From positions 1 to 64,000 of the IMG/VR virus record IMGVR_UViG_3300021136_000003: a stretch of DNA of 64,000 bases. One strand, given 5' to 3'. The stretch's first letter is position 1. The number at the start of each line of letters is the position of its first letter. Below are positions 48,770-64,000 of the stretch, piece by piece. The translations under genes and the position numbers were made by a program. The stretch is from a virus. Lineage: Duplodnaviria; Caudoviricetes. The notes below the pieces were generated by a model, which made no database searches, was not told where the DNA came from, and saw nothing but the letters and a program-made list of their open reading frames with translations.

Positions 48770-48850
48770 ATAAATAAAAGTGAGAGCCACGGAACAACGA
48801 ATTCCTGCCCTCTCTAACGCTACAAAGGAGCAATCAGCATGACTATTTAT
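48770..48850 (+). promoter_or_regulatory. Conserved structured leader of GIY-YIG gene (copy 2 of 4)
   Basis: Same architecture as 15540-15622. Confidence 0.8.
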
Positions 48851-49564
48851 TATCTCTATGTTAAGACCCATAAAATAACAGGTCTTAAATATCTCGGCTA
48901 CACAGGAAAAGCAGACCCATATAAATACCTCGGTTCCGGTGAGTATTGGAAAACACATCTCAAAAAACATGGAAAAGAAATCACGACGGAAATATTACAT
49001 GAATGCCAATCTAAAACAGAAATCAAAGATCGCGGGTTGTATTACAGCGAATTATGGAATGTAGTGGATGCCTGTGATGTCCTGGGCAAAAAGACTTGGG
49101 CCAACCTAAAACCTGAAGCCGGGGAAGGTGGTGATTGTGGTCCTAAAGGACGAGCGGAAATTTCACGCAAAGGTAAAGGACGGACACATTCTGATCTAAC
49201 TAAGCGTAAAATGAGCTATTCACATACTGGTACCATAATGTCTGGCATTACCAAGGAAAAGATAGGACTTAAAAACGCCGGCAAGAAACACACGGATGCC
49301 TTCTGTGATTTACATCGAGGGCCCAATAACAAGTTTTTTGGTACAGGCCCGTTTAACGGAAAAACTCACTCCATCGAGACTAAGGAGAAGATTAGTGCCA
49401 AAAATACAGGGAGAAAGCACACCGAGGAGGCCCGTCTAAACATAAGCAAAAAGATGGCCGGAATAAAAATGGCTGAAGTGACTTGTCCCCATTGCTCCAA
49501 AGTAGGAGCAGGAGGGGCAATGAAACAATGGCACTTTGATAAGTGTAAGTTTAACCGAAGGTGA
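48839..49564 (+). CDS. GIY-YIG homing endonuclease (Seg-like), NUMOD3-like repeats, CPHC tail
   Basis: IYYLYVKTH..TGLKYLG, YLGSG.YW, WANLKPE.G.GG, HS.ETK.KIS. Confidence 0.88.
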   Translation: MTIYYLYVKTHKITGLKYLGYTGKADPYKYLGSGEYWKTHLKKHGKEITTEILHECQSKTEIKDRGLYYSELWNVVDACDVLGKKTWANLKPEAGEGGDCGPKGRAEISRKGKGRTHSDLTKRKMSYSHTGTIMSGITKEKIGLKNAGKKHTDAFCDLHRGPNNKFFGTGPFNGKTHSIETKEKISAKNTGRKHTEEARLNISKKMAGIKMAEVTCPHCSKVGAGGAMKQWHFDKCKFNRR

Positions 49565-50798
49565 ATAGAGAATCAACTGTAGAGTTGGTGTCTGTATTGG
49601 AACGTAAGTCCCAGTTCATAACACCGAGTAAGTTGTCGATCTTTTCATCAACTAACGTCTTTTCCATTAATAGATTGTCGAACGGAAGTTCTTTGAACCA
49701 TTCTGGCAATCTCATTTCATCAACTGGGTATGCAATGCTGGTGTAACCCAATGGGTTGTTTTTCAGCTTACATACCACAATCTTCATGCCATCCATGATC
49801 TTCATTGAGTAGTTGTCGTTATGGACTCGACGCAGCCAGTTCCAGTTGATAGCAGCCCGAACGTGACCAGGCATGTTTGCCCTGCCTGTTCGACTTTTCT
49901 CTTCCGCTTCACCATACATCGTCAGCTTGTTAACTGACTTAGGCGAACCCTTTGTCCATCCGTCTTGGTTGCCCAATTCAGTTTTGAACGTCTTGATAAC
50001 CTCAATGATATCCTGACGATCTTTACCATCAAGGACCATCTCCAACACTCGCATCAGGAACTCTTGAACATACTTAGGTGTGTCAGCGCGTTTCAGATCA
50101 AGACCCATAGCCTTGATTTGACCAATGCCGAATCTGACACCGTTCTTCTTAGCCTTGTCCATGTCATACTGATCCAGACGCTTGCCTTCTTTGTCGTAGA
50201 TGTTCAGAGCATACCGCTTCTTAGTGATAAACAACGACCGATCAGCAACCAGTTCTCGACCTGCTTTGATGATTTCGCCGTTCTTGCGTGGAGCATGAAA
50301 CGACTTCTCCATAAAGCCAGCGAACCCGTCATTGATCTGATCAGCGATATTGTCGTACAACTGAATAGCAACGTCTTTGCTCCAAGTCATTGTGCTAGCA
50401 GCAACTTCATCCTTCATCAGAGGCCATGCAGAGAAATAACAAGAGTCAGTGTCACCGTATACGATTGCTTGCCCGGTGTAGTCATACTCTCCGGTGACGA
50501 TTTCATTGATGTGTGCGCTCATGTGCTTCACAATCTGCCTGCCTGATAGAGTAACCGATTGACCGATACGCTTATCGTAGAAACGACAGTGTTCATTCAA
50601 CAGGGCACCGTAAGCTGAGTTCAACAAAATCTTTCTGACCAGTTGTCGCTTGTCCCAATAATCTGTAAATTCCTTTATTTTCTCCTGTGAAGCGACTATC
50701 TTCCCATTTTTAATCACAAGGTTATGCAACTTCATATATTGTCGCAATTCCGATACATTTCTGGTTTTTACCAAGTGTTTAATATGTTCTACATCCAT
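49551..50798 (-). CDS. Family B DNA polymerase, C-terminal fragment
   Basis: KILLNSAYG (motif B), YGDTDS (motif C), KKRY, thumb region. Confidence 0.92.
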   Translation of the reverse strand: MDVEHIKHLVKTRNVSELRQYMKLHNLVIKNGKIVASQEKIKEFTDYWDKRQLVRKILLNSAYGALLNEHCRFYDKRIGQSVTLSGRQIVKHMSAHINEIVTGEYDYTGQAIVYGDTDSCYFSAWPLMKDEVAASTMTWSKDVAIQLYDNIADQINDGFAGFMEKSFHAPRKNGEIIKAGRELVADRSLFITKKRYALNIYDKEGKRLDQYDMDKAKKNGVRFGIGQIKAMGLDLKRADTPKYVQEFLMRVLEMVLDGKDRQDIIEVIKTFKTELGNQDGWTKGSPKSVNKLTMYGEAEEKSRTGRANMPGHVRAAINWNWLRRVHNDNYSMKIMDGMKIVVCKLKNNPLGYTSIAYPVDEMRLPEWFKELPFDNLLMEKTLVDEKIDNLLGVMNWDLRSNTDTNSTVDSLFTFG

Positions 50799-50847: not shown

Positions 50848-51546
50848 ATGGGGTTAAATAAAAAATACAATGAAAGCACTTACTCTGCTGCCGTAAAAAA
50901 ACTCGGTTACACCGCGTTGGAACCTTATAATGGTATCACCTTTAAAATAAATCATATGTGTCATACCTGTAACAATATTTGGAATACGCAACCCAGGCAA
51001 GTCTTGAATGGAATAGGTTGTCGTCATTGTTTCCAGTTGAGAGTTCGCAAACCGATTGACTTGGTAAAGACGAGTTTATTGCCCGGTCAATGGGAAATAG
51101 TTGACGATAACGAATACAAAAACTCATATTTACCGCTGCATTTTAAACACCATTGTGGTCATATAGTAAAGTCTTCCCTCGAGGTAATATTACGCACTGA
51201 CGAACACCGCAAACGTTGTCCGGTTTGCACCCCACATAAAATAAGAGAAGGAACGTGGTCAAAACCAGTCGAACATGATGGCCGTAAATATTCATCAACC
51301 TTGGAGGCAACGTGCTGTGAATATCTTATTGGTAAGTTTGGATTATCGGATATCATATTACAAAAAGAATATTCGGTTGATGATAGAAGAACAGCGGATG
51401 CATATATTAAAAGTTTGGATACTTATGTAGAAGTTAGCAGTATAGGAAAAGAATGGTATTTAGAAAGGATTTACAGAAAACGGGATCTTGTAAAAAACTT
51501 CATCTTCGTGTCATCCCTTTCTCAACTACGGACTATGATTAAGTAA
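50848..51546 (+). CDS. Putative homing endonuclease (zinc ribbons plus PD-(D/E)xK-like C-domain)
   Basis: CHTC, CRHC, CPVC; S.LE, ADAYI...YVEV; lies between the polymerase halves. Confidence 0.7.
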   Translation: MGLNKKYNESTYSAAVKKLGYTALEPYNGITFKINHMCHTCNNIWNTQPRQVLNGIGCRHCFQLRVRKPIDLVKTSLLPGQWEIVDDNEYKNSYLPLHFKHHCGHIVKSSLEVILRTDEHRKRCPVCTPHKIREGTWSKPVEHDGRKYSSTLEATCCEYLIGKFGLSDIILQKEYSVDDRRTADAYIKSLDTYVEVSSIGKEWYLERIYRKRDLVKNFIFVSSLSQLRTMIK

Positions 51547-53217
51547 AGCTACCATTTCATCGTCTACATCTATCCCCGCGGCAAGTTCAGAACAGAGTTT
51601 CATTTTCCGTTGTTGAGCCTTACGATCACTGTACCACTTACCAAGTAGTCCCGGGATGATACCTTGATTAGCATACGAGAAGATCGTGCCGTTCGCACTG
51701 ATCATCCATGGATTGTGACTGTCAAAGATCATCTTCCAGATTTCAGCAGCACTTTTCTCCTCAGTGCGTCCATCTTCGTAGTCAATCGTCAGCAGAGTGC
51801 CGCGTTCTTGGTTCATGATCGAGGTGTATTCTAACGACCCGAACAAACCTTCCCAGAGGACACTTCCCGTCACATCATCGTCGCCATCTTTGTGGCGTTT
51901 CTTCTCACGTGCCAGTCTCATGCCCTTTTCGTGCATGAACTGATCTGTCAGTGTTTGTCTGACCTGAGCAATGATGGTTTCTGGCGCCATGTTAAGCGCC
52001 CGGATCGTTGAGGGATAGAGCGAGTTAATGTCAACTGCTCCGACCCATTCGTGAATTCCCTTTTTGGGAGTAGCAACATAGGCACCTGCCGCTTGTTGTT
52101 GGATATCATCATTTTCAACCCTTCGTTTTTTATCAGGAACTACCAGACCATGATCATGAGCTTCGTTCATGATCGCCATTTCAACCATTGCCACTGTACC
52201 CATGACAACCGGAATCAACACGGTGTTTTCGTGTGCCAGTTGATTTGCCAGTTCAAGAAAGTGAACTTTAGCATGGATCTTATATACCAACTTCGTATCT
52301 TGTCTGTTGTATTCAATGAACTTTTTGAAGTCTTTGTTATACAACTGATCCAGAGTACCCTCGTATGAAGTCTTGTTTTCGTGAACTTCTAACTCGCCAA
52401 TAGCATCTAGTTTGTAGCTGTGGCGACTCTCGTAGTTGTACTTTTTGTAGAGTTGAAGATAGTCAAGATGAATACGACCGATCAAGTCGTAAGTTGTTTC
52501 TTCTTTGCCGAAGCGTTCGTATGTGCGAGCCTTAGGTAGCTGACCTAGTAAACAGAACTTTCGTGTGTCGTTCTTGCTCATAACTCGGGTGACACGATTA
52601 ACCATGTAGGGTATGTCGTATCCTTCAGAGTTCCAACCAGTTAACACATCGGCATCGTCAATCAACTGAAAGAACACATCGAACATGTCCTTCTCACTGG
52701 TGAACAGCATGGTGTCCTCGAACGAATCGCAGATTTCTTGTGCTGTCTCCGGCGTCATGTGCTTAGGAGCAATGACAAGAGTGACAAGACGATCAAGCCA
52801 GTCAAGATACATTGAGATAGCAGTGATCTTGTTCATCGCTTCTGATGCAGGGGAGAAGCCTTTGTCAGGATCGAAGTCAGTTTCAATGTCGAAGAAGCAA
52901 GTGTGAAGTTTGGGAGCATCAATGTTGCGATAGTTCTCACTAAGGCATCTGCCCACAACGCCAATATCACTCTCAAACATTTTCTTGCCGGAGTTTATTC
53001 GTCGTTCTTTTTCAAACTCTGTTCGCTTTCGGCAGGAGAATCGACTGACCGGGAGTGCGGTGCCCGCACTCAGCCCGCGATACTTGCCTTTGGGATCCGC
53101 GTAGTAAAATGTATAGTTTGCCTGATACTCTTTATACTGACGCTTACCGTCCTTGTCCCGTTCTACAACAACGATCTGCTCAGAGTCTTTATTGTGGATT
53201 GCGTCAACAAATGACAT
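51526..53217 (-). CDS. Family B DNA polymerase, N-terminal fragment (3'-5' exonuclease plus motif A)
   Basis: FFDIET, GWNSEGYDIPY, YKLD, YNRQD, VDINSLYPS. Confidence 0.92.
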   Translation of the reverse strand: MSFVDAIHNKDSEQIVVVERDKDGKRQYKEYQANYTFYYADPKGKYRGLSAGTALPVSRFSCRKRTEFEKERRINSGKKMFESDIGVVGRCLSENYRNIDAPKLHTCFFDIETDFDPDKGFSPASEAMNKITAISMYLDWLDRLVTLVIAPKHMTPETAQEICDSFEDTMLFTSEKDMFDVFFQLIDDADVLTGWNSEGYDIPYMVNRVTRVMSKNDTRKFCLLGQLPKARTYERFGKEETTYDLIGRIHLDYLQLYKKYNYESRHSYKLDAIGELEVHENKTSYEGTLDQLYNKDFKKFIEYNRQDTKLVYKIHAKVHFLELANQLAHENTVLIPVVMGTVAMVEMAIMNEAHDHGLVVPDKKRRVENDDIQQQAAGAYVATPKKGIHEWVGAVDINSLYPSTIRALNMAPETIIAQVRQTLTDQFMHEKGMRLAREKKRHKDGDDDVTGSVLWEGLFGSLEYTSIMNQERGTLLTIDYEDGRTEEKSAAEIWKMIFDSHNPWMISANGTIFSYANQGIIPGLLGKWYSDRKAQQRKMKLCSELAAGIDVDDEMVALLNHSP

Positions 53218-53533: not shown

Positions 53534-53615
53534 TATAAATAGATAGTGCGGTTCGCTGGTGATCAGACCCTAACCGCTCTAACGCTTTTGAGGAGCAATC
53601 AGCATGACTATTTAT
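53534..53615 (+). promoter_or_regulatory. Conserved structured leader of GIY-YIG gene (copy 3 of 4)
   Basis: TATAAATA; GCGGTT/AACCGC stem; TCTAA; AGGAGCAATCAGCATG. Confidence 0.8.
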
Positions 53616-54251
53616 TCATACAAAAATCCACCCGATGGATTTTATACATACGCATATTTGCGTGATGATAACACCCCGTATTACATTGGTAAGGGACAGG
53701 ACAAGCGAGCATGGAAACACGCAAAAACGGAAGTATTCAGAACACCCAAAGATCATTCCAGAATAATTATTTTAGAGGCCAACTTATCAGAGGTCGGCGC
53801 GCTTGCTTTAGAAAGATTTTATATTCGTTGGTACGGTCGCAAAAATGAAAACACCGGTATACTTCGCAATAAAACAGCGGGCGGTGAGGGAATTTCTGGT
53901 TTTAAACATTCCCAAGACACTAAGGATAAGATCAGAGAAAAACGCCTCGGCTCCATTCCATCATCAGAGGCGCGTCTTAAACAAAGTCGGGCATTGAAGG
54001 GTGTAAAGAGGGGACCACATTCCTTGGAACGCAGAGCGGCTATTAGCAAAAGTAGAAAGGGATATACATATTCTACAGATCGTAATGCTAAGGTAGCTGC
54101 CGCCCATACAGGAAAGAAGCGAGTTGAGCATGGAATAAATATGACCGGGGCTAATAATCCGTCATTTGGTAAACACTGGTTTAATAACGGGGAAGTTTCT
54201 ATTTTAACCTTTGATTGCCCCGAGGGGTTTGCACCTGGAATGCTGAGATAA
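53604..54251 (+). CDS. GIY-YIG homing endonuclease with NUMOD3-like repeats
   Basis: FYTYAYLR...PYYIGKG...R, LE...I..YGR, LRNKT.GGEG. Confidence 0.88.
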   Translation: MTIYSYKNPPDGFYTYAYLRDDNTPYYIGKGQDKRAWKHAKTEVFRTPKDHSRIIILEANLSEVGALALERFYIRWYGRKNENTGILRNKTAGGEGISGFKHSQDTKDKIREKRLGSIPSSEARLKQSRALKGVKRGPHSLERRAAISKSRKGYTYSTDRNAKVAAAHTGKKRVEHGINMTGANNPSFGKHWFNNGEVSILTFDCPEGFAPGMLR

Positions 54252-54327: not shown

Positions 54328-55179
54328 TCATTTTCCTGTCCAGACGGCGTATAGTCCGGAGTTATATTCACCACTATATACAGTGCTTAACTTAGTTTTT
54401 ACAGCGGCTTCTAATTCTTTCCCGGTGTCATTGGGCTGCACATCAAATGCAAAGTATAAGGAACCATACCCGCCCTTACCAATATACTGTCCGCCTAATT
54501 GTCCCATGATGATGTCAATCGTCTGATCAGCCTTTTTATTACGTTTTTCATCATACTGTTTATCGCCTCTCCGGGCGTAGGGATCTATTTTTATGGTAGT
54601 TAAATTATCATCATGGACAGACACATACCCTTTCATATCCACGCCCGGGATTCCTGATATGCTAACCCAGTTCTTGCGGCCGCCAGGTGTTTGACTTGTC
54701 CCGGCTAGTAATGGTAACTTCAATATAGTCAGCACAATGCCGTATAATGCTTTGGCCAGACCTATGCCACGATAGTCCTCGTCAACTGTGATTGTTCCAA
54801 CTTTAACAGCATTCTTCAGGGGAAAAGATTTTGCCTTATCCACAGTAAGTTCACCGATTAATTGACCCGGTGCTTTTAGTTTTTGTTGTTCTCGTTCCCA
54901 GTCGCGTACTCTACCATGGAATCGACGGCGTTGAATAACTGGCTTTGATTCTGCACCTCTTCGTTTAGCCTGAATAAAGTCTTCTCCGTTCGGATCCCAA
55001 ATTCTAATAGCGGTGCTTCCCCAGTTACCACTCCCTATACTGTACAAAAGACCGCTGCCACCTGGTAAGGCAGATACTTTCTTGCCGGAGTCTGTGCCAC
55101 CTAAATAGCCCTTACCACCTTCGTAATCGTCAGGTCGTAGTCGTTCAATCCCCTCATTGATAAATTCATTTGCTCTCAT
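54328..55179 (-). CDS. GNAT-domain protein with capsid-targeting-like N-terminus
   Basis: MRANEFINE; VDEDYRGIGLAKALY, QTPGGRKNW. Confidence 0.75.
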   Translation of the reverse strand: MRANEFINEGIERLRPDDYEGGKGYLGGTDSGKKVSALPGGSGLLYSIGSGNWGSTAIRIWDPNGEDFIQAKRRGAESKPVIQRRRFHGRVRDWEREQQKLKAPGQLIGELTVDKAKSFPLKNAVKVGTITVDEDYRGIGLAKALYGIVLTILKLPLLAGTSQTPGGRKNWVSISGIPGVDMKGYVSVHDDNLTTIKIDPYARRGDKQYDEKRNKKADQTIDIIMGQLGGQYIGKGGYGSLYFAFDVQPNDTGKELEAAVKTKLSTVYSGEYNSGLYAVWTGK

Positions 55180-55751
55180 TGGAATATCTCCGGATGTTCC
55201 TTGCCGTATATCTTGATATACTTTCCGGCCATGGCATCAGCCAGTACTTCGATGGGGCTGCCGGGATAACTGTCGCCGTCTTTGACCATGCCCATCTGAT
55301 ATTGTCTGGTATGGGTGAGTTCGTGGAAAACAGTACGGAGAATGTCAATAAGGTTTCTGTTCCCGACATAAATCCAGATCGTGTTGGCAGCAGGAGTGTT
55401 CAATCCAGTGTGGTGACCTTCTCTGGCTGCGTCTGAGTCTTTGCTTAGAGTGATCTTGGGATATGGTTGTTGAATATGCAGCACTTCTATAGCCCACTTG
55501 ATGAAGTCTCTGGTTTGTTCGTCTGAATTATCATCACCTTCTTCGTGTAGTTTGTCTTTGATCAGATCATGTGGCGACTTAAGGTGCTTTCGTTTGAACA
55601 TATCATGTAGTGCATCGTCTGTAAGATTATGTCTACGGGCAATTTTGTGCATAAGATTGTCAAGGGCACTGTGACCGTGAGTAAGGTGGCTTGGTAGTTG
55701 ACGCTCTAGGTCATTTAAAGCTGATTCTGTGATAAATTGATTGGCGCGCAT
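55176..55751 (-). CDS. HExxH metallopeptidase-like protein with capsid-targeting-like N-terminus
   Basis: MRANQFITE; RTVFHELTH..Q...E..AD..AG. Confidence 0.7.
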   Translation of the reverse strand: MRANQFITESALNDLERQLPSHLTHGHSALDNLMHKIARRHNLTDDALHDMFKRKHLKSPHDLIKDKLHEEGDDNSDEQTRDFIKWAIEVLHIQQPYPKITLSKDSDAAREGHHTGLNTPAANTIWIYVGNRNLIDILRTVFHELTHTRQYQMGMVKDGDSYPGSPIEVLADAMAGKYIKIYGKEHPEIFQ

Positions 55752-55777
55752 AGTGTATTTATGCTAGGGAGAATAAA

Positions 55778-55873
55778 GTGTCGCTCTTTAAATAAACCCG
55801 GGCACGACTCCATTGTTATTAGGGTGAGCGACGACCCCACACACGCAACTAAGTTGCGGTCCTAAGGTGTGTT
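55778..55873. ncRNA. Candidate pseudoknotted structured RNA
   Basis: GGGT/ACCC hairpin whose loop (55826-55832) is complementary to 55780-55786; CGCAAC/GTTGCG hairpin inside an ACAC/GTGT stem. Confidence 0.5.
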
Positions 55874-57438
55874 CAGGTAAAATACGGATCAACGATAACA
55901 ATGGTGCCGTCTCGCCGCATCATTGCATTCTCGGTATGAAGGTCCCAACCGAGTCCAGATTTGAGTCCAGCATGATACAACCTGGACATTGTCAAATATA
56001 ATATTCCGAATTGTTTGCTGACTACCGGGTCAGCGAATCTCTCAGCAATCAACTGAGGCATCTCCTGCCAACTAGGAGGCCAAGTACCCGGCTTCTTCAA
56101 CATGCTGACTACATTGCTCCAGGGCGCTCTGATCTTTGCTAGATCACTCAGCAACCACACTATGCGTTGCTCAAAGCTTTTGTCTGGAATCGGCAACAGT
56201 CGTTCCATTGCGATTTGTCTATACGGCGTCCCGTTAATTTCAAACACAGTAGTTCCTTGCCCACCAATATCAATAAATCGCGGCAGATTAGGTAACTCCG
56301 GATGCTTTTTACAGAATTCATAAAAGGTCATAAAGCCTTTTTCAGCATTGGTGACATCACTTGGCAAAGTGCGTCTGGGCATCAGAATCTTGATGACATG
56401 ATTATCATCCTTCGCCCACACTGTGGCGTCAGCACCGTGACCTAACTTCTTGTATCCGAGCCCTTCTAACTTGGAGAAGATTTGTCTGCTGTTGGGAGTA
56501 TCACGCTCGTATTCATCTAATTTATCCGGCATAAGTTTAACCACTCGAGGCTTGAACAACTGTATGTCACCTTTATTTGTCCGCAAGGTTGGCTGGTTAT
56601 GTTTGTCCTTACCGAAGCCTTTAATCTCAGCAGGACTGTTCTTAAATTTTCCCTTCAAAATTTTGTCACCGGTGTGTAGTGTTGGCGGACTATAGGAATC
56701 CTCAGCGACGAGATGTTTATCATCACCTGACTTTTGCCATGCGTCCCACATTCCTCTACCCGCTGTAGTTCGTTGAAAACTAGGTCTTATATCATTGCCC
56801 AACATCTTCGCATACGCATACATAGTGGATGCTACACCTTTATTTCTATATTTTGGATCAACTTCAGTGCCGCCACTTTCCATGTATCCATCGTTCGTAT
56901 CATCTTCCCAGTCAAATATTTGAAACAATATTTGACCTATTTCTTTATTACCATCATATGCTTTAATGTTCAACAATGGTTCATCCATAAATATCTCAAC
57001 TGACGCTTTGTAAGTATAATCACCAATCTCTTGAGTATGATTGAATTTTTTATTAAGAATATCAGGATTTATTGTTTCGTCTAACTTCTTTGACGCATAC
57101 GCCACGGGAACTGTCTTCATTCCGGCGAGCCAGAACGCAACCATACGATGGCGACCTTCCATGACGAATAGATCAGGATCGCCCTGCTCCACATACATTG
57201 GCATCGGAGTGGCACCTTGTTTCAACAGACGAAGAATCTTGTTTGTTCGCCGTTCGTCTTTGGGAAACTCATTGAAGGTTCCGTGCATCTCTTTGATCTG
57301 ACCCAGGAACTTGTCAATAGGTTCATGCTTGATATGAACTTCAATCTGATCAGGTTCGGCGTGTAGCCATTGAGCCACGCTGACCAGATCCTCTCTTGTA
57401 GGATCTATTGTTTCGTATAGAAATATATGGGCTCTCAT
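55873..57438 (-). CDS. Multidomain polyprotein: ParB/Srx-like, GNAT, small domain, kinase-like
   Basis: EGRHR; VDPKYRNKGVASTMY; LGHGA.ATV, VIKI, DLHTEN.M, IVDP; LDE/VAE linkers. Confidence 0.75.
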   Translation of the reverse strand: MRAHIFLYETIDPTREDLVSVAQWLHAEPDQIEVHIKHEPIDKFLGQIKEMHGTFNEFPKDERRTNKILRLLKQGATPMPMYVEQGDPDLFVMEGRHRMVAFWLAGMKTVPVAYASKKLDETINPDILNKKFNHTQEIGDYTYKASVEIFMDEPLLNIKAYDGNKEIGQILFQIFDWEDDTNDGYMESGGTEVDPKYRNKGVASTMYAYAKMLGNDIRPSFQRTTAGRGMWDAWQKSGDDKHLVAEDSYSPPTLHTGDKILKGKFKNSPAEIKGFGKDKHNQPTLRTNKGDIQLFKPRVVKLMPDKLDEYERDTPNSRQIFSKLEGLGYKKLGHGADATVWAKDDNHVIKILMPRRTLPSDVTNAEKGFMTFYEFCKKHPELPNLPRFIDIGGQGTTVFEINGTPYRQIAMERLLPIPDKSFEQRIVWLLSDLAKIRAPWSNVVSMLKKPGTWPPSWQEMPQLIAERFADPVVSKQFGILYLTMSRLYHAGLKSGLGWDLHTENAMMRRDGTIVIVDPYFT

Positions 57439-57821
57439 TGTAGTTCTGATAGATCAATGTATTTAATCGAAGTGCCTTTATATGCTGCTGCCAACGCACG
57501 ATGATTGCCGTCGATGATCCTATGCTCAGATATCACAATAACTTTGTCAGCTAATGTTGGATCATTCATGTAGCGTTCAAGAATTTCTTTCTGATCCGGG
57601 GCCATCATGTCAACAATTTCATCAAGGTGCTCGACCCGGTATTGACCAAGCAACATGATTTCTATTTTGTATCGGGGCATCGTATGAATCATCAACGGCG
57701 TGTCAAGATCCATTGTTCCTATCTCATCCCATAGAGATTCATCGCGCCCCGGAAGATCACTGTCGTATAAATCATTCAGCGTTGTTTGCTGACTCTCGGA
57801 TAGAAACTCTGTGGCTCTCAT
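57435..57821 (-). CDS. ParB/Srx-like protein with capsid-targeting-like N-terminus
   Basis: MRATEFLSE; IIDGNHRALAA. Confidence 0.7.
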   Translation of the reverse strand: MRATEFLSESQQTTLNDLYDSDLPGRDESLWDEIGTMDLDTPLMIHTMPRYKIEIMLLGQYRVEHLDEIVDMMAPDQKEILERYMNDPTLADKVIVISEHRIIDGNHRALAAAYKGTSIKYIDLSELQ

Positions 57822-57822
57822 A

Positions 57823-59646
57823 TTAGTCTGCCGGTTGAACGATGAGTTCCCGTCGTTGCTCCGGTGTTAGTCCCATTTGATTTACTATCTCAATCGCTCG
57901 GTCATATGCGCCGGCGTTTACGGCGCCCGGTGGCGCCATAAATGGTTCGCCAATGTGTTCACCGGTATTACGATTAACAAGCGCCCACGGGACCATACCA
58001 GGCGTAGTGCCGGGTTGAGTTGTTTCAGGTTCCCAATCTTGATTAGGAGTCAGATAACCGGAGCGTGTTCTGATGCTAGCAGCCGGCGCTGCTACTTCGG
58101 GGCCCTGTTTCTTAATATTTCTTTGTAGCTGTACCTGCTTGATGAAGCTTTTTAGGGCGGCTGCTGGCATATCACCGGCGACATACTTGGCGAAGATACC
58201 AATCGGATCGCCTTCACCCTTTGGGGCCAGGATCTTGTACAGCTTCTTCAGATATTCTTTGCGATACTTCTGTGGATCACTTGCGGCGTCAAGCGCAACT
58301 ACAGTTCTCAACAACGTATTTTCAATCTTGTCGAAGTTATCATCTAACCAATCGCCGCCGGGCGATCTGAACTCAATGTAGTCACCTTTGTTGTTGATGC
58401 TGATGTATTTGTCTGTGTTGCCACTGTGAATTGCTTTTGACGCAAACTTGTCAAGACCTGAACGCATCTTTTCCAGAACTGCTTTGGCATCTGCATCACG
58501 TGTCATTGCGTATTGCTTTACTTTGGCCAGTGCTGACTTACAGAATGTGTTTGCTTCACGCCCGAATTGTTCAAGTATGTAATCATCTCCGAGCAACAGA
58601 GCAAGTTTAACATAGTCTCTGTCGGCACCTTGAGGCACGCTGACATTGATGTGAAGACCGGTTGATTCGTTTGTGTAGCAACCGGTCTCATCTGCCCATG
58701 CTTTAACTTTCTTCAGATCAGCGATGATATCAGGGATAGACATCGGCGGACTGATGAATTCCAGACCACCATCTTCAGGTTCATTCGGTGAGTCAAGACT
58801 TCCGTCCGGTTCAAGTGAGTATGCAGTTGGAGAACGACCGGCACGATGATATCCACCGGTTATGACTTTCTTACCCATTGCTTTGCTGAACATCTCACCG
58901 ACTGAATCCATGTCAAGCTCACCGGCTTCAGGCGCGGTGCGATACGGCCATGTAATAGTGTAGTTATTTTCCACATCACTCATGCGACGGAGGTTGTTAT
59001 CACGTAGGAAGTCACGTTGATCAGGACATTCCCAATCATTTTCCCATTCTTCACGGGCCTTGTCATATAACCTGCCTTGAGAGTCCCATTCTTCTTCTAC
59101 TTTTTCATCAAATGCTTCTTCAGCAACGGTAACGGCTCGGACCCAGTTATGATACGCCGGCGTATCAGGTAACTCTTTACTTGTCTGTATGCCTTTTGCA
59201 GAGTCTCCACCGTCTTTGGCTTCGTCTTTTTCTTCTGCGGTGAATCCAAGATCATTCATTGCTTGATCGATTGCTTCGTCGGCGTCCCAATCATTTTCTT
59301 CCATGTATGTTTTCAGCAGTTCTTTACCTTCTTGGTGCCACTGTTCAGATTGTTGCTCCATGCCCCATTCAGAGTAAGCATCTTCAAGTTCGTCACGCAG
59401 CATTGCTAAATCTCTACGATCATTGTAGCCATCGCCGCCGTTAAAGAAGCGGATGATATAGTCTATATCATTGGCCTGCTCATCCATACTATAGTCAGGC
59501 ACAGATTCGTAGTCATTGTCTGGCCCACCTGCGTTCGGGACATACATCTCAAACTCCATGCCTGCCATGGCGTTGATCTTCTCGGCGTCCCTTCTCAGGG
59601 AGTTCGGATTCATTGCTATTTCGTTTAAAAACTCTAATGCTCTCAT
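57823..59646 (-). CDS. Putative amidoligase (COOH-NH2 ligase) family protein
   Basis: MRALEFLNE; GMEFE, DGSL, LEFISP, TGLHINVS, KY..IN, IEFR. Confidence 0.75.
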   Translation of the reverse strand: MRALEFLNEIAMNPNSLRRDAEKINAMAGMEFEMYVPNAGGPDNDYESVPDYSMDEQANDIDYIIRFFNGGDGYNDRRDLAMLRDELEDAYSEWGMEQQSEQWHQEGKELLKTYMEENDWDADEAIDQAMNDLGFTAEEKDEAKDGGDSAKGIQTSKELPDTPAYHNWVRAVTVAEEAFDEKVEEEWDSQGRLYDKAREEWENDWECPDQRDFLRDNNLRRMSDVENNYTITWPYRTAPEAGELDMDSVGEMFSKAMGKKVITGGYHRAGRSPTAYSLEPDGSLDSPNEPEDGGLEFISPPMSIPDIIADLKKVKAWADETGCYTNESTGLHINVSVPQGADRDYVKLALLLGDDYILEQFGREANTFCKSALAKVKQYAMTRDADAKAVLEKMRSGLDKFASKAIHSGNTDKYISINNKGDYIEFRSPGGDWLDDNFDKIENTLLRTVVALDAASDPQKYRKEYLKKLYKILAPKGEGDPIGIFAKYVAGDMPAAALKSFIKQVQLQRNIKKQGPEVAAPAASIRTRSGYLTPNQDWEPETTQPGTTPGMVPWALVNRNTGEHIGEPFMAPPGAVNAGAYDRAIEIVNQMGLTPEQRRELIVQPAD

Positions 59647-59650
59647 ACGA

Positions 59651-61753
59651 TTATTTAGTCAGTGGTTTATTTGTCCCAGCTAACCTGCTAATCGCACGTT
59701 TCATACCAGAATTACGATCTTTCTTACCTGTGAGTGTATCAGTCATTGCTTTGCCAAGATAACTCTTTACTGCGGGATCACTGATTTCATCCATCTCTTG
59801 ATTGAACTTGCCTTCGAAGTCCTCCTGTTCATCTGGGCCAGGTGCTTCTGGTGTTGAAGGGACAAGACTATCATAGTCTTTCATTGTCAGAGTTCTGCCA
59901 CGTTGGCAACCTGCTACTAGCTTTTCAGCAAGATCATGTAGAGCCATATCGTCAGCCGCATCTTCCTTGGCAAACTCAAGCAGTCTGATCAGCAATGGAA
60001 CGTCAAGCTTCACCACATCAGCGGGGTTCATCGCCTGCTCTGGTTTAGATAGCAGTCCTGATTTAGGGCGACGACGGTCAGCAGATAGAACTACATCATC
60101 TTCTGTGATTTCACCTTCAGCAACGTTAGATGCTCCGGTTGCCGCCGGGTGCAGGTTATTAATGATACGTTTAAGGCCGGCTATTTCTTTCATCAGTTTG
60201 GCAATCTCTGCGTCGTGGCGCTTATCGTTCTTTTCAGTAATGTCTAGTCCTCGCTGCATCCACTTGTTCATGGCTTCATCAGGGCTTAGAGTAGCACCGT
60301 AGTGTCGCTGCGCCCACTCAGATTTGCGTCTTAATTCCGGGTCATTAGATTGTGCCACAGAAGGATTAGCACTAACATCTACGTGCTTGTTCTTATCAGG
60401 GCCCACCATGTTTATCGGGCCAGACTTCTTACCTGCTTGAGGTTGTGCTGCAACAGCCTGTCCTGCTGGTAGTGTATTTGCTTCCGCCACACCTTGCCTA
60501 GATTTAACGTGTCTATATCCAGTTTTATAATCTTCTGCATCCTGTTCGCTGTTGTGGATATTGTTATATGACTTTTTTCTGTGGGCATCTAATCTGCCTT
60601 GCTCATATGGGGTCGGGGTGCTACCAGAATGTTTTGTTTTGCGTGGTGCTGAATGGTCGTTAAATTTTGGAGATGTAGGATCCTTGTTCAACAAATCAGA
60701 TATGGAGCCTTCCGCCACACCTTGCTCTTTGTCGGCTGCGCCAGTATCTTTAGTAGTATGTCTCGTAGAGAAATACTTTTCAGTTTTTCCTAACTGTTTT
60801 GGTTTAGCATTTTGTTTTTGCCATTCTTTTTTATCGTCTGCTTCCGCCACACCTTGCTGACCTTTAATGCCAACATAGGCTTTAATAGTAGAGATCCCTA
60901 ATGCTTTTGCTACATTGGCTCTGTGATAGCCATCTAATATATTACCATCACTACCAACTACTATAGGGGGAGCCTTGCTAAAGTCCATCTTTTTGTATTG
61001 CTCTACTTTTGTTCTATCTAATCCTGACAATTCAGTTCTGATGGAATTTAGTGGGATATTTTTTAGCACAAACTTGCTGTTCGTATTAGTAAGATGATTT
61101 AGATAATCGGGGTGTAGATTCTCATCGTGGTGCTGTCTTAGATACGCAATCATATCTTCTGTAGACATATCATTAGAGAAGCCTTCCGCCACCTTCTTAT
61201 TCTTGTTATCAAGCATACCACGCTTGTTGGCGGTTGCCCAGGCGATATTTTCTGCTTCTTTCGAGGACTTGCCAAGTTTCTTCTCGCTTGATTTGACATG
61301 ACCGACCATGCGATCTACCTTGGCGCCTTCTTCGACTGACTCATACTGGTATGTACCAAACGCATTAGCATAATTGCGGCCATCTTCTGTGTCGGTATGC
61401 TCCTTATCACCGGTACCGTTGCAAGTTGGGCATATAACTTTAGTGGCACCTTTCTTATTGTCTGGGTATAGTTTGCCACCGAGTTTATACTGCACCTTGC
61501 GACCATGACAAGCAGTGCAGTTTGTATTCTGGTGTTTGATAGTTTGACCGGGCATGTGATCTACATCATGCGGGAAACCCTCGCCTTCGTGTAGGCTGTT
61601 AGCATACTTCGCTGAAGTTTTGATACCTTTGAGTAGATTGCTACCTTTAAGTTTCTTCTCCGGAGTGCGCTTTTGAACGGTTTCAAATGGTTGAGCGAAT
61701 GTTGCTACAGCGCCTGCAGTTGTTGAACATTCTTCGAGGTGTTTGATTTGCAT
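59651..61753 (-). CDS. Modular polyprotein with repeated (G)VAE linkers; includes CxxC zinc finger and ParB/Srx-like module
   Basis: KKVAE, QQGVAE, EQGVAE, RQGVAE, SNVAE; CTAC/CPTC; ILDGYHR. Confidence 0.75.
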   Translation of the reverse strand: MQIKHLEECSTTAGAVATFAQPFETVQKRTPEKKLKGSNLLKGIKTSAKYANSLHEGEGFPHDVDHMPGQTIKHQNTNCTACHGRKVQYKLGGKLYPDNKKGATKVICPTCNGTGDKEHTDTEDGRNYANAFGTYQYESVEEGAKVDRMVGHVKSSEKKLGKSSKEAENIAWATANKRGMLDNKNKKVAEGFSNDMSTEDMIAYLRQHHDENLHPDYLNHLTNTNSKFVLKNIPLNSIRTELSGLDRTKVEQYKKMDFSKAPPIVVGSDGNILDGYHRANVAKALGISTIKAYVGIKGQQGVAEADDKKEWQKQNAKPKQLGKTEKYFSTRHTTKDTGAADKEQGVAEGSISDLLNKDPTSPKFNDHSAPRKTKHSGSTPTPYEQGRLDAHRKKSYNNIHNSEQDAEDYKTGYRHVKSRQGVAEANTLPAGQAVAAQPQAGKKSGPINMVGPDKNKHVDVSANPSVAQSNDPELRRKSEWAQRHYGATLSPDEAMNKWMQRGLDITEKNDKRHDAEIAKLMKEIAGLKRIINNLHPAATGASNVAEGEITEDDVVLSADRRRPKSGLLSKPEQAMNPADVVKLDVPLLIRLLEFAKEDAADDMALHDLAEKLVAGCQRGRTLTMKDYDSLVPSTPEAPGPDEQEDFEGKFNQEMDEISDPAVKSYLGKAMTDTLTGKKDRNSGMKRAISRLAGTNKPLTK
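60481..61193 (-). repeat. 17-bp direct repeat GCAAGGTGTGGCGGAAG (3 exact copies plus 1 partial)
   Basis: Plus-strand CTTCCGCCACACCTTGC at 60481, 60709, 60841; partial at 61183. Confidence 0.9.
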
Positions 61754-61830
61754 AGTATATTTCCACTTATATACTATTTATCAAAATTGGTTTAAAGAGA
61801 GTTTATTTTCGAAGCAAGGGCGGATTATGG

Positions 61831-62502
61831 TTATGCTATCGTCCAGCCTTTGTGTATTCGTCTTTTATTACGGACAACTGAATTTAAATTTGGCTGACAT
61901 AGATCATATTTCCTAATTAGGTCGTATTGAGTTAACGTTTCTATAATCCCTGTAGTGTGGATGAAGGTGTAAATTGTATGATCGTATTTGTAACTATTTT
62001 TGCCACTCAACTTTTCTTTAACTTCGGGTCTATTTTGTACTTCTTTTTGAAGTACGCTATTCCGAGTGCGATAATCTATGGATTGGTGGGCATCTATTTG
62101 CTTTTTAATATATTCTTTATTTTTCCATAACATTTTGTGGGAATCTGAATTTTTAAGTTTTGTAGCCGGCCTATTTTGAATTTCAGTGGCTAGCGCCGAA
62201 GTCATACCTTCGCCCCCGCCGTTTTCTTTAATCCGGTTAGCCCATATTTTATTGCCGAAATCATCCTGGCCGGTTACTACCCTCCATAGGCTACTATAAT
62301 ACATTCCCCAATAGTACAGTTCCTGTCTGCTCTGACAGGCAATAATAATTTCAGTTGAATGTTCTTTTCCGTGACGCATGAGATGGATCAACCAATCTTT
62401 ACCGGATCCGAGATATTTGTGTGGGTCTTTGCGTTTTGTCTGACAAAGATATTTTAAACCGGTAATATTATGGGTCTTAACCATAAGATAATAAATAGTC
62501 AT
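61831..62502 (-). CDS. GIY-YIG homing endonuclease (Seg-like) with C-terminal HTH
   Basis: IYYLMVKTH..TGLKYL, YLGSG..W, WAN...E.GGG, HKGW. Confidence 0.85.
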   Translation of the reverse strand: MTIYYLMVKTHNITGLKYLCQTKRKDPHKYLGSGKDWLIHLMRHGKEHSTEIIIACQSRQELYYWGMYYSSLWRVVTGQDDFGNKIWANRIKENGGGEGMTSALATEIQNRPATKLKNSDSHKMLWKNKEYIKKQIDAHQSIDYRTRNSVLQKEVQNRPEVKEKLSGKNSYKYDHTIYTFIHTTGIIETLTQYDLIRKYDLCQPNLNSVVRNKRRIHKGWTIA

Positions 62503-62568
62503 GCTGATTGCTCCTTGGGCATTAGAGTAGTTGGGAATTCCACTTCCGCGAACTACACTACTATTTAT
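62491..62568 (-). promoter_or_regulatory. Conserved structured leader of GIY-YIG gene (copy 4 of 4)
   Basis: GTAGTT/AACTAC stem, CGC bulge, GGAA/TTCC stem, TCTAA, AGGAGCAATCAGCATG. Confidence 0.8.
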
Positions 62569-63824
62569 CTTTTTGTTTTGCCATCGGCCCGGGCAAACTG
62601 AGGAATTCCTGATCTTTTTATTCCACCTAACCCTAATTTTTTAGCATTTACTTGGATCGTATCCGGCTTGATATCTACAGTTAACGCTGTTTTGTATCTT
62701 GGATCATTCTTTTGAGCGTTGCTTGGGATGTAACCTGATGCTGATTCAAACATCGCGTCTACATCTTTTGATGCGACACTTATATTACTGACTGGGACCG
62801 GAGAAGTAATCACAACTTCATATTCTGCACCAGGAGTATATTTACCTTGTAGTCCTGTCGAATCTATAGCCAGTAGTGCCAGAGTTTCATTCTCATCGAA
62901 CTGATCACCTAACCAATTCATCAGCGCATCTTCGACTGATACCTTATCGGGGAAACAGAATATACCAGATTGTTCGTTGTATATTTGTGCTGATCTACTT
63001 CCTACTTTCGGTATCAACCCTTTACTCATTATGCCAGGCAGATTCTTCGCCGGAGTCACATGATACAATACTTTAGGAAGAGTAGACGTTGATTCTTCCA
63101 ATTGAGAATACTGTCCCTCGATACTCAATCTTCTGGAATGAAGTTTATCTCGCAGAGCATACAGCTTAGTGATCTGGCCAGTTGTTCGTATTGCTTTGTA
63201 TGCAAGATTCTCTGGTCCGAACTCGCCGCCTTGGTCAAGCCCTGCTTGTCTGTAGCGATGTATTGTTTTGATCAGATGATTTATCTTATTCAGGTCAGAT
63301 GTTTTCAACGCTCTGTCTATCAACTTCGACAGTTTTTCATACTTCGCAGCCGTTGCTGTTTGATCGAAGTTTGCTCTACGCTTACTTGGGATTCTGATCC
63401 ACTCATCACGCAGAATACTATACTCACCGACGCTTGTAACCTGATGATTTGAATCCTGAATGTACAACTCAACTGGAATGTGTCTGATTGTTATGTCGTG
63501 TGTGTCGTTATAGATTGTCTTTTTCGCATCAAACAACTCCAGATACATTGCGTCATTATTTAACTTCGACATATCCACAAGTAGATGTAAATCTAGATCA
63601 GAGTGTTTCGTATAACTGTATGCTGCGTTTGAACCGGAGATTGTGATATCAACCACGTTAATATCAGACAGACCCATTTCTTCAATGAAATCTTCAGCGA
63701 TGATTTTCAGTTGCTTTTCAACTTCAGGATGTAGGTGACGACCTCTGAAAAGTTTAGGGTTCAGTTCCGTGTGAAAAGTCACTGCGTCTGCCAGTTTAAA
63801 TGAGTCGAGTTCTTTGAGATCCAT
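62565..63824 (-). CDS. Polyprotein: Pol-beta-type nucleotidyltransferase plus Tpt1/ADP-ribosyltransferase-like domain
   Basis: GSNA.Y.Y...SDLDLH, VELY; LYHVT...NL..I...GL.P; start revised to MDLKEL. Confidence 0.7.
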   Translation of the reverse strand: MDLKELDSFKLADAVTFHTELNPKLFRGRHLHPEVEKQLKIIAEDFIEEMGLSDINVVDITISGSNAAYSYTKHSDLDLHLLVDMSKLNNDAMYLELFDAKKTIYNDTHDITIRHIPVELYIQDSNHQVTSVGEYSILRDEWIRIPSKRRANFDQTATAAKYEKLSKLIDRALKTSDLNKINHLIKTIHRYRQAGLDQGGEFGPENLAYKAIRTTGQITKLYALRDKLHSRRLSIEGQYSQLEESTSTLPKVLYHVTPAKNLPGIMSKGLIPKVGSRSAQIYNEQSGIFCFPDKVSVEDALMNWLGDQFDENETLALLAIDSTGLQGKYTPGAEYEVVITSPVPVSNISVASKDVDAMFESASGYIPSNAQKNDPRYKTALTVDIKPDTIQVNAKKLGLGGIKRSGIPQFARADGKTKR

Positions 63825-63831
63825 CAAGTAT

Positions 63832-64000
63832 TTATCGGATAGATTTACAATGGTCAAAGTGGTGCCTCTTCATAACTACGCACCCGCCGGATTTGCCACA
63901 ATGTGGACAAGTTATCACCTCTTGCTTTCGCCCTCTTAGTTGCGCTGATCGGTTTTCAATAACTTCAGGTCGTTGTTTTCTGCCAGTTACCGTAGCAGTT
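63832..64000 (-). CDS. Partial homing endonuclease (C-terminal end)
   Basis: ITCPHCGKSGG..VMKRHHFDHCK; runs off window end. Confidence 0.75.
   Translation of the reverse strand, partial: TATVTGRKQRPEVIENRSAQLRGRKQEVITCPHCGKSGGCVVMKRHHFDHCKSIR

Follow-up and report, generated by a model that had tools for sequence, protein, structure and literature searches.

What keeps a short piece of DNA identical, codon for codon, at several points of one viral gene when the protein modules on either side of it have nothing in common? The question is raised by a gene in IMG/VR virus record IMGVR_UViG_3300021136_000003 (Duplodnaviria; Caudoviricetes), of which positions 1 to 64,000 were analyzed and are called the window below. 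The 17-mer GCAAGGTGTGGCGGAAG occurs in this 64-kb window as three exact copies, all on the minus strand (60481-60497, 60709-60725, and 60841-60857), and no further match appears even when up to three mismatches are allowed. The number expected by chance in the window is 0.11, and none of 100 shuffled sequences reached three copies. In the whole 121,109-bp record, no additional copy is found at one mismatch or fewer. All three copies share one frame, in which they read CAA GGT GTG GCG GAA, or QGVAE, and all three lie inside a single open reading frame (ORF), P0001. A partial copy of 10 nt, GTGGCGGAAG, encodes the V-A-E upstream of them, and a fifth V-A-E follows further downstream (N-V-A-E-G, aa 544-546, 60116-60124). 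The parts of the ORF, in the order in which they are translated, are as follows.

59651-61753, minus strand: polyprotein ORF P0001, 700 aa, six modules with five V-A-E sites between them (from the ORF list and its translation).
61730-61753, minus strand: leader MQIKHLEE, which ends in L-E-E and is a candidate capsid-targeting propeptide (by-eye likeness to the T4 capsid-targeting sequence, CTS, and to the MRAxEF[LI]xE leaders of ORFs downstream).
61193-61336, minus strand: conserved 48-aa module GAKVDRM...LDNKNKK, aa 140-187, the most widespread part of the family (nucleotide alignments).
61183-61192, minus strand: partial linker GTGGCGGAAG, K-K-V-A-E/G, aa 186-191 (homology to the related loci L087 and L088 ends here, at gene nt 574 and 580).
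60842-61183, minus strand: cassette 1, 114 aa (aa 191-304), predicted ParB/sulfiredoxin fold with an invariant DGYHR (alignment, AF2 model, and Foldseek).
60841-60857, minus strand: linker copy 3, Q-Q-G-V-A-E/A (contigs of all four sequencing runs compared diverge at 60856-60858).
60726-60840, minus strand: body of cassette 2, which with the 3' linker codons makes up the 44-aa module, aa 305-348 (module families).
60709-60725, minus strand: linker copy 2, E-Q-G-V-A-E/G (contigs of the same four runs diverge at 60706-60709).
60498-60708, minus strand: body of cassette 3, which with the 3' linker codons makes up the 76-aa module, aa 349-424, with no Pfam family (module families).
60481-60497, minus strand: linker copy 1, R-Q-G-V-A-E/A (exact 17-mer).
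60116-60480, minus strand: 122-aa module, aa 425-546, which ends in N-V-A-E with the ordinary codons GTT GCT GAA (module family F7, 6 members).
59654-60115, minus strand: conserved C-terminal domain, aa 547-700, never followed by another module (module family F1, 21 members, whose sole right neighbor is the protein end).

In order, the six modules measure 190, 114, 44, 76, 122, and 154 aa, and they are mutually unrelated. Cross-matches among them appear only at E >= 0.029 and span 5-53 residues; the linker peptide accounts for the shortest. The GC content of the three middle cassettes is 0.37, 0.37, and 0.41, as against 0.46-0.50 in the flanking parts of the gene and 0.65 in the 17-mer; the low GC of these three mobile cassettes (60482-61183) fits a separate origin or history. 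A preliminary description of this DNA had reported the threefold repeat with identical codons, its partial copy, the unrelated modules of about 44, 76, and 114 aa, and the more AT-rich DNA between the repeats, and each of these readings of the letters holds. No Pfam family is found in P0001 at E <= 0.01, and a PHROGs search of the protein returned no named function. For the C-terminal domain, the ESM Atlas gave only uninformative viral clusters without names (scores 0.80-0.82, TM <= 0.34). When Pfam was run on 10 close homologues, nine were without a family, and the remaining one, P0008, gave sub-threshold matches only and no peptidase.

The spelling of the linker was compared with that of the ORFs that carry it, using 92 QGVAE sites with unique context from 46 loci and the same ORFs as background. 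Valine is encoded by GTG in 74 of the 92 sites, against a background of 11.8% (12.3% after Gly), and alanine by GCG in 83 of them, against 7.9% (4.3% before Glu). For their amino acids, these two rank last or nearly last in codon usage in the linker loci. The Gln-Gly pair is written CAA GGT at 88 sites out of 92, where ~35% would be expected. Clustering of 88 QGVAE sites by both flanks gives 87 clusters, and the sites therefore represent independent junctions. Invariant peptides from the same loci serve as controls: LDNKNKK is written as 45 different nucleotide strings at 86 sites, the top string accounting for 11, and AWATANKRG as 58 strings at 87 sites (top 8), whereas QGVAE is written as only 11 strings at 91 sites, 60 of which carry the top string. 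A codon-blind search of five genomes recovered 17 QGVAE sites, 13 of them the exact 15-mer, with no hits for a reversed control pattern. Elsewhere in the 121-kb record, other ORFs contain 11 VAE tripeptides; their codons are mixed, and GTG GCG is used in none of them.

The 17-mer is present in 14 of 80 related IMG/VR loci, and scanning IMG/VR with the 17-mer alone brought up at least 120 stretches. Among the 80 loci examined from that scan, 99 of 100 matches encode QGVAE in the longest ORF, and the hundredth keeps that frame within a 97-aa ORF, so that in these loci the string is never out of frame, antisense, or intergenic. The linker is constrained at the nucleotide level. Identity at synonymous positions had been taken beforehand as a sign of either constraint or recent copying of the DNA, and the 74 GTG and 83 GCG codons among 92 sites show constraint; the 17-mer does recur in related phages, in the QGVAE frame, and linkers elsewhere are not spelled with random synonymous codons, as the top string at 60 of 91 sites and the 13 exact 15-mers out of 17 attest.

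Homologues of P0001 number 418 at E <= 0.001 among 8000 candidates, and the exact protein is present on five contigs. The 120 best homologues (78,404 aa), when cut at V[AST]E, yield 491 modules that fall into 256 families, most of them without a Pfam match. At least one VAE is present in 101 of these 120 proteins, and QGVAE occurs in them 200 times. The N-terminal part always comes first and the C-terminal domain always last (21/21). The 114-aa cassette, which is referred to below as the ParB cassette, is found in 41 of the 120 homologues, where it has 33 distinct left and 33 distinct right neighbors. The corresponding numbers are 12 and 9 for the 44-aa cassette, which is found in 15 homologues at positions 0-4, and 8 and 7 for the 76-aa cassette, which is found in 10. 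The order is permuted as well: the 44-aa cassette stands before a cassette marked by 'SLNESDKF' in P0013 and after it in P0016, and at the DNA level L020 and L025 have five blocks in common that are arranged in a different order.

Nucleotide alignments place the borders of these exchanges. In the window gene, linkers are positioned at nt 562-571, 904-913, and 1630-1639. The 48-aa module is ~72-86% identical to most related loci, and the alignments stop at gene nt 560-561, directly before the linker. With L087, homology covers nt 1-574 and then 1630-1968; with L088, it covers nt 22-580 and restarts at 1634. For these two loci and for L005 and L103, the restart falls at gene nt 1626-1634, which is the fifth VAE site. 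Matches to L089 (566-912), L094 (562-913), and L095 are confined to the interval from 562/566 to 891/913, and around linker copy 2 there are 22-27 nt that match the linkers of L005, L020, L025, L026, L062, and L064 at 96-100%. For a general view, internal ends of high-scoring segment pairs (HSPs) between loci were counted in 82 distinct linker-bearing ORFs and scored as near when within 15 nt of a VAE boundary. Such ends make up 313 of 1481 at >=70% identity, 168 of 512 at >=85%, and 52 of 126 at >=92%, as compared with 3.9-5.0% of random points. An earlier test with low-identity HSPs, which was diluted by decaying similarity, gave 17% vs 3% within 12 nt.

Single cassettes can be followed between genes. 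L087 and L110, which come from different assemblies, have leaders that are 73% identical and one cassette that is 100% identical over 292 nt. The identical block starts one codon before a Q-G-V-A-E and ends one base past the next Q-G-V-A-E, and the cassette occupies different positions in the two genes. Logan contigs from four freshwater runs were also compared. In each of the four, contigs that carry the 44-aa cassette diverge exactly at 60706-60709 and 60856-60858, that is, at both flanking linkers, with at least three different continuations. A second copy of the 44-aa cassette, found in other contexts in the same runs, shows four differences, all at third codon positions. Two apparent joints, 60725>61174 and 60727>60837, were considered as deletions and rejected, as their sides are only 20-21 nt long and reflect one linker matching another.

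Not every border is a VAE. Following the LDNKNKK module, the window has V-A-E, other loci have V-K-E, V-S-E, or M-x-E, and ~20 of 47 distinct loci have a stop codon, with a new gene, MSNILKG..., immediately next. The stop codons at the module end, together with the occurrence of the ParB cargo in both forms, indicate that the borders of cassettes are either linkers or gene borders. In P0008, a module of ~65 aa (NEGREPMVGETCF...SLWEG) is duplicated in tandem with no QGVAE between the copies; thus, not all module multiplication proceeds via the linker. Taken as a whole, the family is a mosaic of cassettes with breakpoints at the linkers. The alternative that orthologues keep a fixed module order does not describe these genes, in which order varies and the breakpoints of gain and loss map to the linker.

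The phage that carries the gene can be placed by its relatives. The record is viral, 121,109 bp long and 35% complete, which corresponds to a genome of ~350 kb. Three complete relatives of 349-354 kb (G001-G003) were reached via homologues of the polyprotein gene. All three have a Peptidase_S77 gene (PF03420, the T4 gp21-type prohead protease; E 1e-26 to 1e-28), a Gp23-type major capsid gene (PF07068; E ~1e-99), a coiled-coil scaffold-like ORF between the protease and capsid genes, and a gene of the RecA/UvsX family. In G002, the counterpart of P0001 is split into two genes of 503 and 1004 aa. Among the INPHARED phages, the gene is unmatched by blastn (distant mode) and by tblastn at E <= 1e-5, so that no cultured relative is at hand. 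The sequencing runs listed with the gene or part of it are all freshwater, lake, or freshwater-sediment metagenomes (24/24, from 17 studies). The source is a freshwater jumbo phage, T4-like and uncultivated.

The motif recognized for cleavage in T4 is Leu/Ile-x-Glu. The gp21-type proteases cleave C-terminal to Glu, behind a short motif (PMC9026906, PMC5694885); T4 internal proteins receive a single cut by gp21 after the CTS MKTYQEFIAE (PMC8442874) and are then retained in the head and injected (PMC8442874, PMC9026906). As regards motif and accessibility only, P0001 offers five V-A-E sites of the gp21 substrate type, and the QGVAE tail of the modeled ParB cassette has a pLDDT below 50. The scaffold-like and capsid ORFs of the three complete relatives contain 17 [LIV]-A-E sites, in which GCG is used in 0/17 and GTG in 0/4 Val codons. 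One of the sites in the capsid protein is a conserved LLAE/SSAG (MLAE/NASAG in the third genome) that lies ~40 residues in, where T4 gp23 loses its propeptide. The ordinary codons of the scaffold and capsid sites argue that cleavage as such does not need the spelling of the linker.

Sequence-only searches failed for the 114-aa cassette, for which a search by fold was therefore needed; the single match of its profile to a PDB sequence, at E 0.96, was rejected. The AF2 model of the cassette has a pLDDT of 81.6, and the top Foldseek matches are all ParB-N or sulfiredoxin, with a best E of 5.8e-4 and TM values of 0.40-0.50 by query length in the top dozen. Residues D84 G85 Y86 H87 R88 are invariant in 10 aligned sequences, and a precomputed PF02195 match exists in four homologues. 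As modeled, the cassette has a ParB/sulfiredoxin fold with a Gly-x-His-Arg-type loop. This cargo domain, which supplies the strongest argument for cleavage at the linker, occurs 126 times in 240 proteins. Upstream of it there is an internal VAE in 53 of the 126 cases, and most of the others have hydrophobic-x-E (VTE 8, ISE 5, VDE 5, MAE 4, and more). In 16 of the 126, the cargo comes directly after an N-terminal MRAxEF..E leader, in proteins of ~113-306 aa, mostly 113-180 aa; another 9 lack a Glu upstream, and in 5 the domain begins at or close to a Met. The cargo begins with identical residues in both settings, ...LLE/GFSNDMST behind the leader of P0149 and ...VAE/GFSNDMST in the window, which suggests that the internal linker and the leader cleavage site are interchangeable upstream borders of one cargo. 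The VAE linkers are well supported, by inference from motif and context, as putative prohead-protease sites. That the linker is a protease site had been proposed from P0001 alone, and the proposal is consistent with the gp21-type protease of the relatives, the [LV]AE sites of their scaffold and capsid proteins, and the shared cargo start.

Leaders of the same kind are found next to the polyprotein gene. Five ORFs directly downstream (54328-59646, minus strand; 283, 191, 521, 128, and 607 aa) begin with MRANEFINE, MRANQFITE, MRAHIFLYE, MRATEFLSE, and MRALEFLNE, for which the common pattern is MRA.[EQI]F[LI].E. Two of the five have weak GNAT matches. This kind of leader is also seen in the syntenic region of G002 and in a linker-bearing region of G001, and by its leaders the interval 54328-59646 looks like a large internal-protein locus of the T4-CTS type. 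The leader of P0001 itself, MQIKHLEE, has a weaker likeness to a CTS, by pattern only, than those of the MRA.[EQI]F[LI].E type. Two further features of the N-terminal part of P0001 are noted here. By eye, the stretch that follows the leader (aa 9-22, 61690-61730), CSTTAGAVATFAQPF, resembles a stretch of the L167 capsid ORF, SSAGTTTAGNIATLNRV, which directly follows the LLAE at which the capsid protein of the relatives would be cleaved, and it may mimic the N-arm of the capsid protein for incorporation. Residues 79-115 (61409-61519) contain two CxxCxGxG-like motifs, CTACHGRK and CPTCNGTG, that are reminiscent of DnaJ-type zinc fingers; homologues have other small Cys-rich or unrelated inserts in this place.

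On balance, we are inclined to read P0001 as a polyprotein of cargo cassettes that are internal to the capsid and probably injected, in which the linker serves both as a cleavage site and as an in-frame recombination joint. The N-terminal leader and the conserved modules would carry the polyprotein into the prohead, where the gp21-type prohead protease would cut after the Glu of each V-A-E and thereby free the ParB/sulfiredoxin-fold domain, the 44-aa and 76-aa modules, and others. At the level of DNA, the string CAA GGT GTG GCG GAA G would be kept constant throughout the family as a shared microhomology, at which the general recombination machinery of the phage would join cassettes. A crossover within the string is always in frame and between domains, so that cassettes could be gained, lost, reordered, and exchanged without wasted recombinants, and the exchange would extend to other genes and to co-infecting phages. 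One universal string would be favored since partners are most numerous for the commonest version, and such positive frequency dependence fits the lack of gene-specific linker variants. The complete relatives have the RecA/UvsX-family gene noted above. Recombination of the T4 type is said to be promiscuous and to need no more than small homologous patches (<50 bp; PMC2839356, PMC3157838), and exchange at conserved motifs is on record both between genes, at PeSLs, with minicircles (PMC2839356), and within genes, at adhesin motifs (PMC3157838). We infer cleavage, packaging, and recombination as the cause of the constraint on spelling.

A number of observations weigh against this reading. No PF03420 protease is found in the record to which the window belongs, a record that is 35% complete. 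Most HSP ends at >=92% identity (74/126) lie away from VAE boundaries, some of them probably at non-VAE linkers, and one difference of P0001 from P0003/P0004 resembles a deletion that lies at no linker. At 17 nt, the string is short for homologous recombination. Each genome has only 1-5 QGVAE sites, which implies limited intragenomic exchange. Variant spellings of the linker show no clustering by gene: pairs with the same string number 259 in the observed data vs 249.8 +/- 12.7 in shuffled data, 475 of 2000 shuffles giving at least as many, so that there is no sign of local gene conversion, in a data set drawn partly from loci picked by the 17-mer and hence biased toward the canonical string. 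CAA, GGT, and GAA are not shifted, although a shift would be expected if high GC favored annealing. Some mosaic architectures of the short-read assemblies could be chimeric, the cassettes being repeats. Finally, the earlier idea that the repeat is the in-frame point of recombination stands as far as the position of the breakpoints is concerned, but it does not stand as a statement of cause, since breakpoints at linkers are equally expected if only in-frame recombinants joined between domains survive; the map is thus no proof that the string promotes exchange.

The chief rival cause for the spelling would be a pause in translation, with an SD-like AGGUG (within CAA GGU G) and the slow, rare codons GUG GCG giving the upstream module time to fold; the shuffling would then be real without being the reason for the identity of the linkers. 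We regard this as unlikely, while recognizing that several of the results above agree with it. The motif invariably lies on the coding strand and is read as QGVAE (99/100 matches in the 80 loci examined), GTG and GCG stand at or near the bottom of Val and Ala codon usage in the linker loci, dialects within genes are lacking, as expected if a single universal reader, for example the ribosome, were at work, and the scaffold and capsid sites, which do not separate independent domains, have no rare codons. However, Gln, Gly, and Glu are written with their commonest codons at a frequency far above background, CAAGGT being used in 88 of 92 sites vs ~35%, and the fixation of common codons too points to one specific string rather than to rare codons in general. 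The SD-like part leaves out the third base of the Val codon and the whole Ala codon. In the usual models of folding pauses, moreover, the pause falls some tens of codons past the domain and not in the linker, which counts against this explanation. No conserved RNA structure is seen around the three copies, which have z-scores of 0.08, -0.68, and -2.52 and three different folds, and Rfam gives no match at E <= 1 in 59000-62500. Neither the window nor the 121-kb record contains phage tRNAs for GUG or GCG.

The string could also be the site of a dedicated site-specific system, with its core of 16-17 nt read by a nuclease, recombinase, or annealase that is conserved in the family, as an integron-like device within an ORF. 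A universal string with little drift amid saturated synonymous sites is what a sequence-reading protein would be expected to maintain, homing-endonuclease-type ORFs are dense near the gene, and a TnsA-like ORF is a neighbor in 40 of 281 loci. Against these stand the neighbors themselves: the 25 commonest clusters of neighboring ORFs include no standout integrase or recombinase, with only ferritin-like and TnsA-like domains named in the 10 that were scanned with Pfam, and the arrays of G001 and G002 lack conserved counterparts of the endonuclease-like neighbors. The string itself is neither palindromic nor accompanied by an attC-like fold, and 1-5 sites per genome are few for such a system. Neither circles nor deletion joints were seen in the contigs of the four runs, a kind of data that cannot reveal them. 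We consider the dedicated system decidedly unlikely. The broader proposition, in which an enzyme of this kind is found throughout the family and moves cassettes in frame at a junction that is read as a DNA recombination site, a polyprotein linker, and a prohead-protease site, is quite unlikely as well. If it were true, the gene would be an integron at the level of protein, and jumbo phages would draw injected anti-host modules from a lake-wide pool of cassettes.

It is very improbable that the codons are shared for reasons of history alone, the linkers being only protease sites that were copied along with their cassettes in recent descent. Some transfers are indeed very recent, as the 292 nt of complete identity demonstrate, and only four synonymous sites separate the second copy of the 44-aa cassette from that of the window. 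However, the control peptides are saturated (45 strings at 86 sites and 58 at 87), and yet 60 of 91 QGVAE sites share one string; the 88 sites lie in 87 unrelated flank contexts; and the favored codons are the rarest, the opposite of drift toward background. That the mosaics are chimeras made by assemblers at repeated cassettes is hardly credible, for while cassettes of 130-340 nt that are shared at 93-100% are longer than many k-mers, so that some long architectures could be mis-joined, the linker of 17-24 nt is below the usual k and cannot create joins, the exact window protein is on five contigs, the contigs of the four runs cross the linker into different flanks, types of cassette-linker junction recur in independent JGI, ENA, and Logan assemblies, and the codon bias is independent of assembly.

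The remaining surroundings of the gene are rich in elements of a mobile type. Homing-endonuclease-type ORFs lie at 48839-49561 and 53604-54248 on the plus strand and at 61834-62502 and from 63832 onward on the minus strand. The first two have NUMOD3 motifs (E 3.2e-10 and 1.6e-4, respectively), and the ORF at 61834-62502, directly upstream of the polyprotein gene, has a weak SegE GIY-YIG match at E 0.011, below the cut-off. Two ORFs near the locus have N-termini that look GIY-YIG-like by eye. A family-B DNA polymerase is split over two minus-strand ORFs, 51529-53217 (exonuclease and the first part of the polymerase) and 49554-50798 (the remainder), and the two halves are separated by an ORF on the plus strand (50848-51543) that weakly matches a treble-clef zinc finger (E 0.012); the polymerase gene looks to be interrupted by a mobile endonuclease-type gene. 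At its N-terminus, the 430-aa ORF at 62565-63857 (minus strand) resembles nucleotidyltransferases (phrog_36119, E 1e-41), and it also gives a weak Tpt1/KptA match at E 0.0076, below the cut-off. Its counterparts in relatives are 736-760 aa long, and 2 of 45 of them contain a GVAE linker. In the collected loci, a ferritin/Dps-like ORF (PF00210, E 4e-21; L171:3143-3613) neighbors linker-bearing genes in 90 of 281 cases, and the TnsA-like endonuclease ORF of the 40 loci mentioned above (PF08722, E 3e-22; L075:1065-1499) is small and may be a head completion nuclease of the T4 gp4 type; both ORFs rank with the most frequent neighbors.

The closest known counterparts of the cassettes are the internal proteins of T4 (IPI-III, encoded by the T-even ip genes). 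A T4-type head module is found in the relatives, the short leaders are of the M..(E)F(I/L).E kind, and cleavage after Glu, established in T4, is predicted here. T4 IPI*, with 76 residues, is within the size range of the cassettes, and the ParB cargo also exists as a single gene made of leader plus cargo. In contrast to T4, where each cargo has one gene and one cleavage site, the cargos here are concatenated via V-A-E linkers, and the DNA string of the linker is fixed. Fixation of the codons of a cleavage site at the nucleotide level was not found described in the literature at hand. Repoila et al. (1994) reportedly discuss the conserved leader and shuffling in T-even ip loci, which may bear on novelty. 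According to PMC3012670 and PMC12373910, the internal proteins of the T-even phages form a very diverse anti-restriction set with only the leader in common. Polyvalent proteins, known from phages and conjugative elements (Iyer et al. 2017, PMC5512222), are similar in that unrelated effector domains are joined in one polypeptide, with predicted delivery alongside the DNA and processing. At least two unrelated effector-type domains per polypeptide are likewise found here, in the six unrelated modules of P0001 and in the cargos of its homologues, which include ParB, GNAT, NTase, NUDIX, deaminase, and chitinase plus LysM domains. The same source proposes an in-built zincin-like peptidase (MPTase), frequent though not universal, for polyvalent proteins, whereas P0001 has no Pfam peptidase, and neither 'linker' nor 'shuffl' occurs in the text of PMC5512222 at hand.

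Short conserved borders around variable cassettes are also known. PeSL motifs border variable cassettes in T4-type phages, are proposed as sites of exchange with minicircle evidence, and have been likened to integrons (Arbiol et al. 2010, PMC2839356), but they are intergenic promoter-terminator/stem-loop elements of ~100 bp around whole ORFs, while the linker is 16-17 nt long, coding, in frame, and at the same time a putative protease site. The glycine-rich motifs of the T-even gp38 adhesins form a structural core with swapped loops (PMC3157838), in contrast to the whole domains and low-pLDDT linker seen here. The VENN pre-toxin motif of CdiA is another short border peptide, and is thought to act in proteolytic release and in homologous recombination with orphan modules (PMC7662968); it is bacterial, however, and delimits one variable C-terminal tip with an immunity gene, without a multi-cassette array or prohead protease. 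In Borrelia vlsE, in-frame direct repeats of 17 bp border the variable cassette region of an expressed gene (PMC9159922), but vlsE varies by unidirectional segmental gene conversion from silent homologous cassettes, and here unrelated domains are exchanged. As in integrons, there are arrays of unrelated cassettes with a conserved junction after each one and a pool common to genomes. Integron cassettes are separate ORFs with a structured attC and require the tyrosine recombinase IntI. No IntI-type tyrosine recombinase appears in the Pfam matches of 14 window ORFs or of 10 representatives of the commonest neighbor clusters, and no attC-type inverted repeats are present, the 17-mer being non-palindromic and the folds around its three copies different. 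The term integron-like array, used in the preliminary description, therefore does not apply in the strict sense.

For the QGVAE, GVAEG, and GVAEA peptides, only alpha-synuclein was found in the literature among the matches listed, and PMC7824862 makes no mention of a prohead protease or of capsid targeting. The parts of the system are thus known, in the sources available to us, from CTS-bearing internal proteins, gp21 processing, polyvalent proteins, T4-type motif exchange, VENN borders, and vlsE repeats. Their combination, an array of unrelated cargos within one ORF whose joint is a prohead-protease site and is written in fixed, partly avoided codons that coincide with the points of exchange, was not found described in the portions of the literature at hand.

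These results provide a clean instance of selection on synonymous sites, together with a testable hypothesis for its cause, in-frame recombination joints. They also supply a catalogue of candidate injected effectors, with hundreds of small and mostly unnamed cassettes that can be delimited by a simple rule, and they point to a possible design principle for loading phage capsids with exchangeable multi-protein cargo. The injection of small, rapidly evolving proteins against host defenses is an established phage strategy. Each of the three internal proteins of T4 blocks one restriction enzyme (PMC12373910), and turnover of the internal-protein repertoire has hitherto been explained by the exchange of whole genes. 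In these freshwater jumbo phages, such turnover is apparently compressed into single genes.

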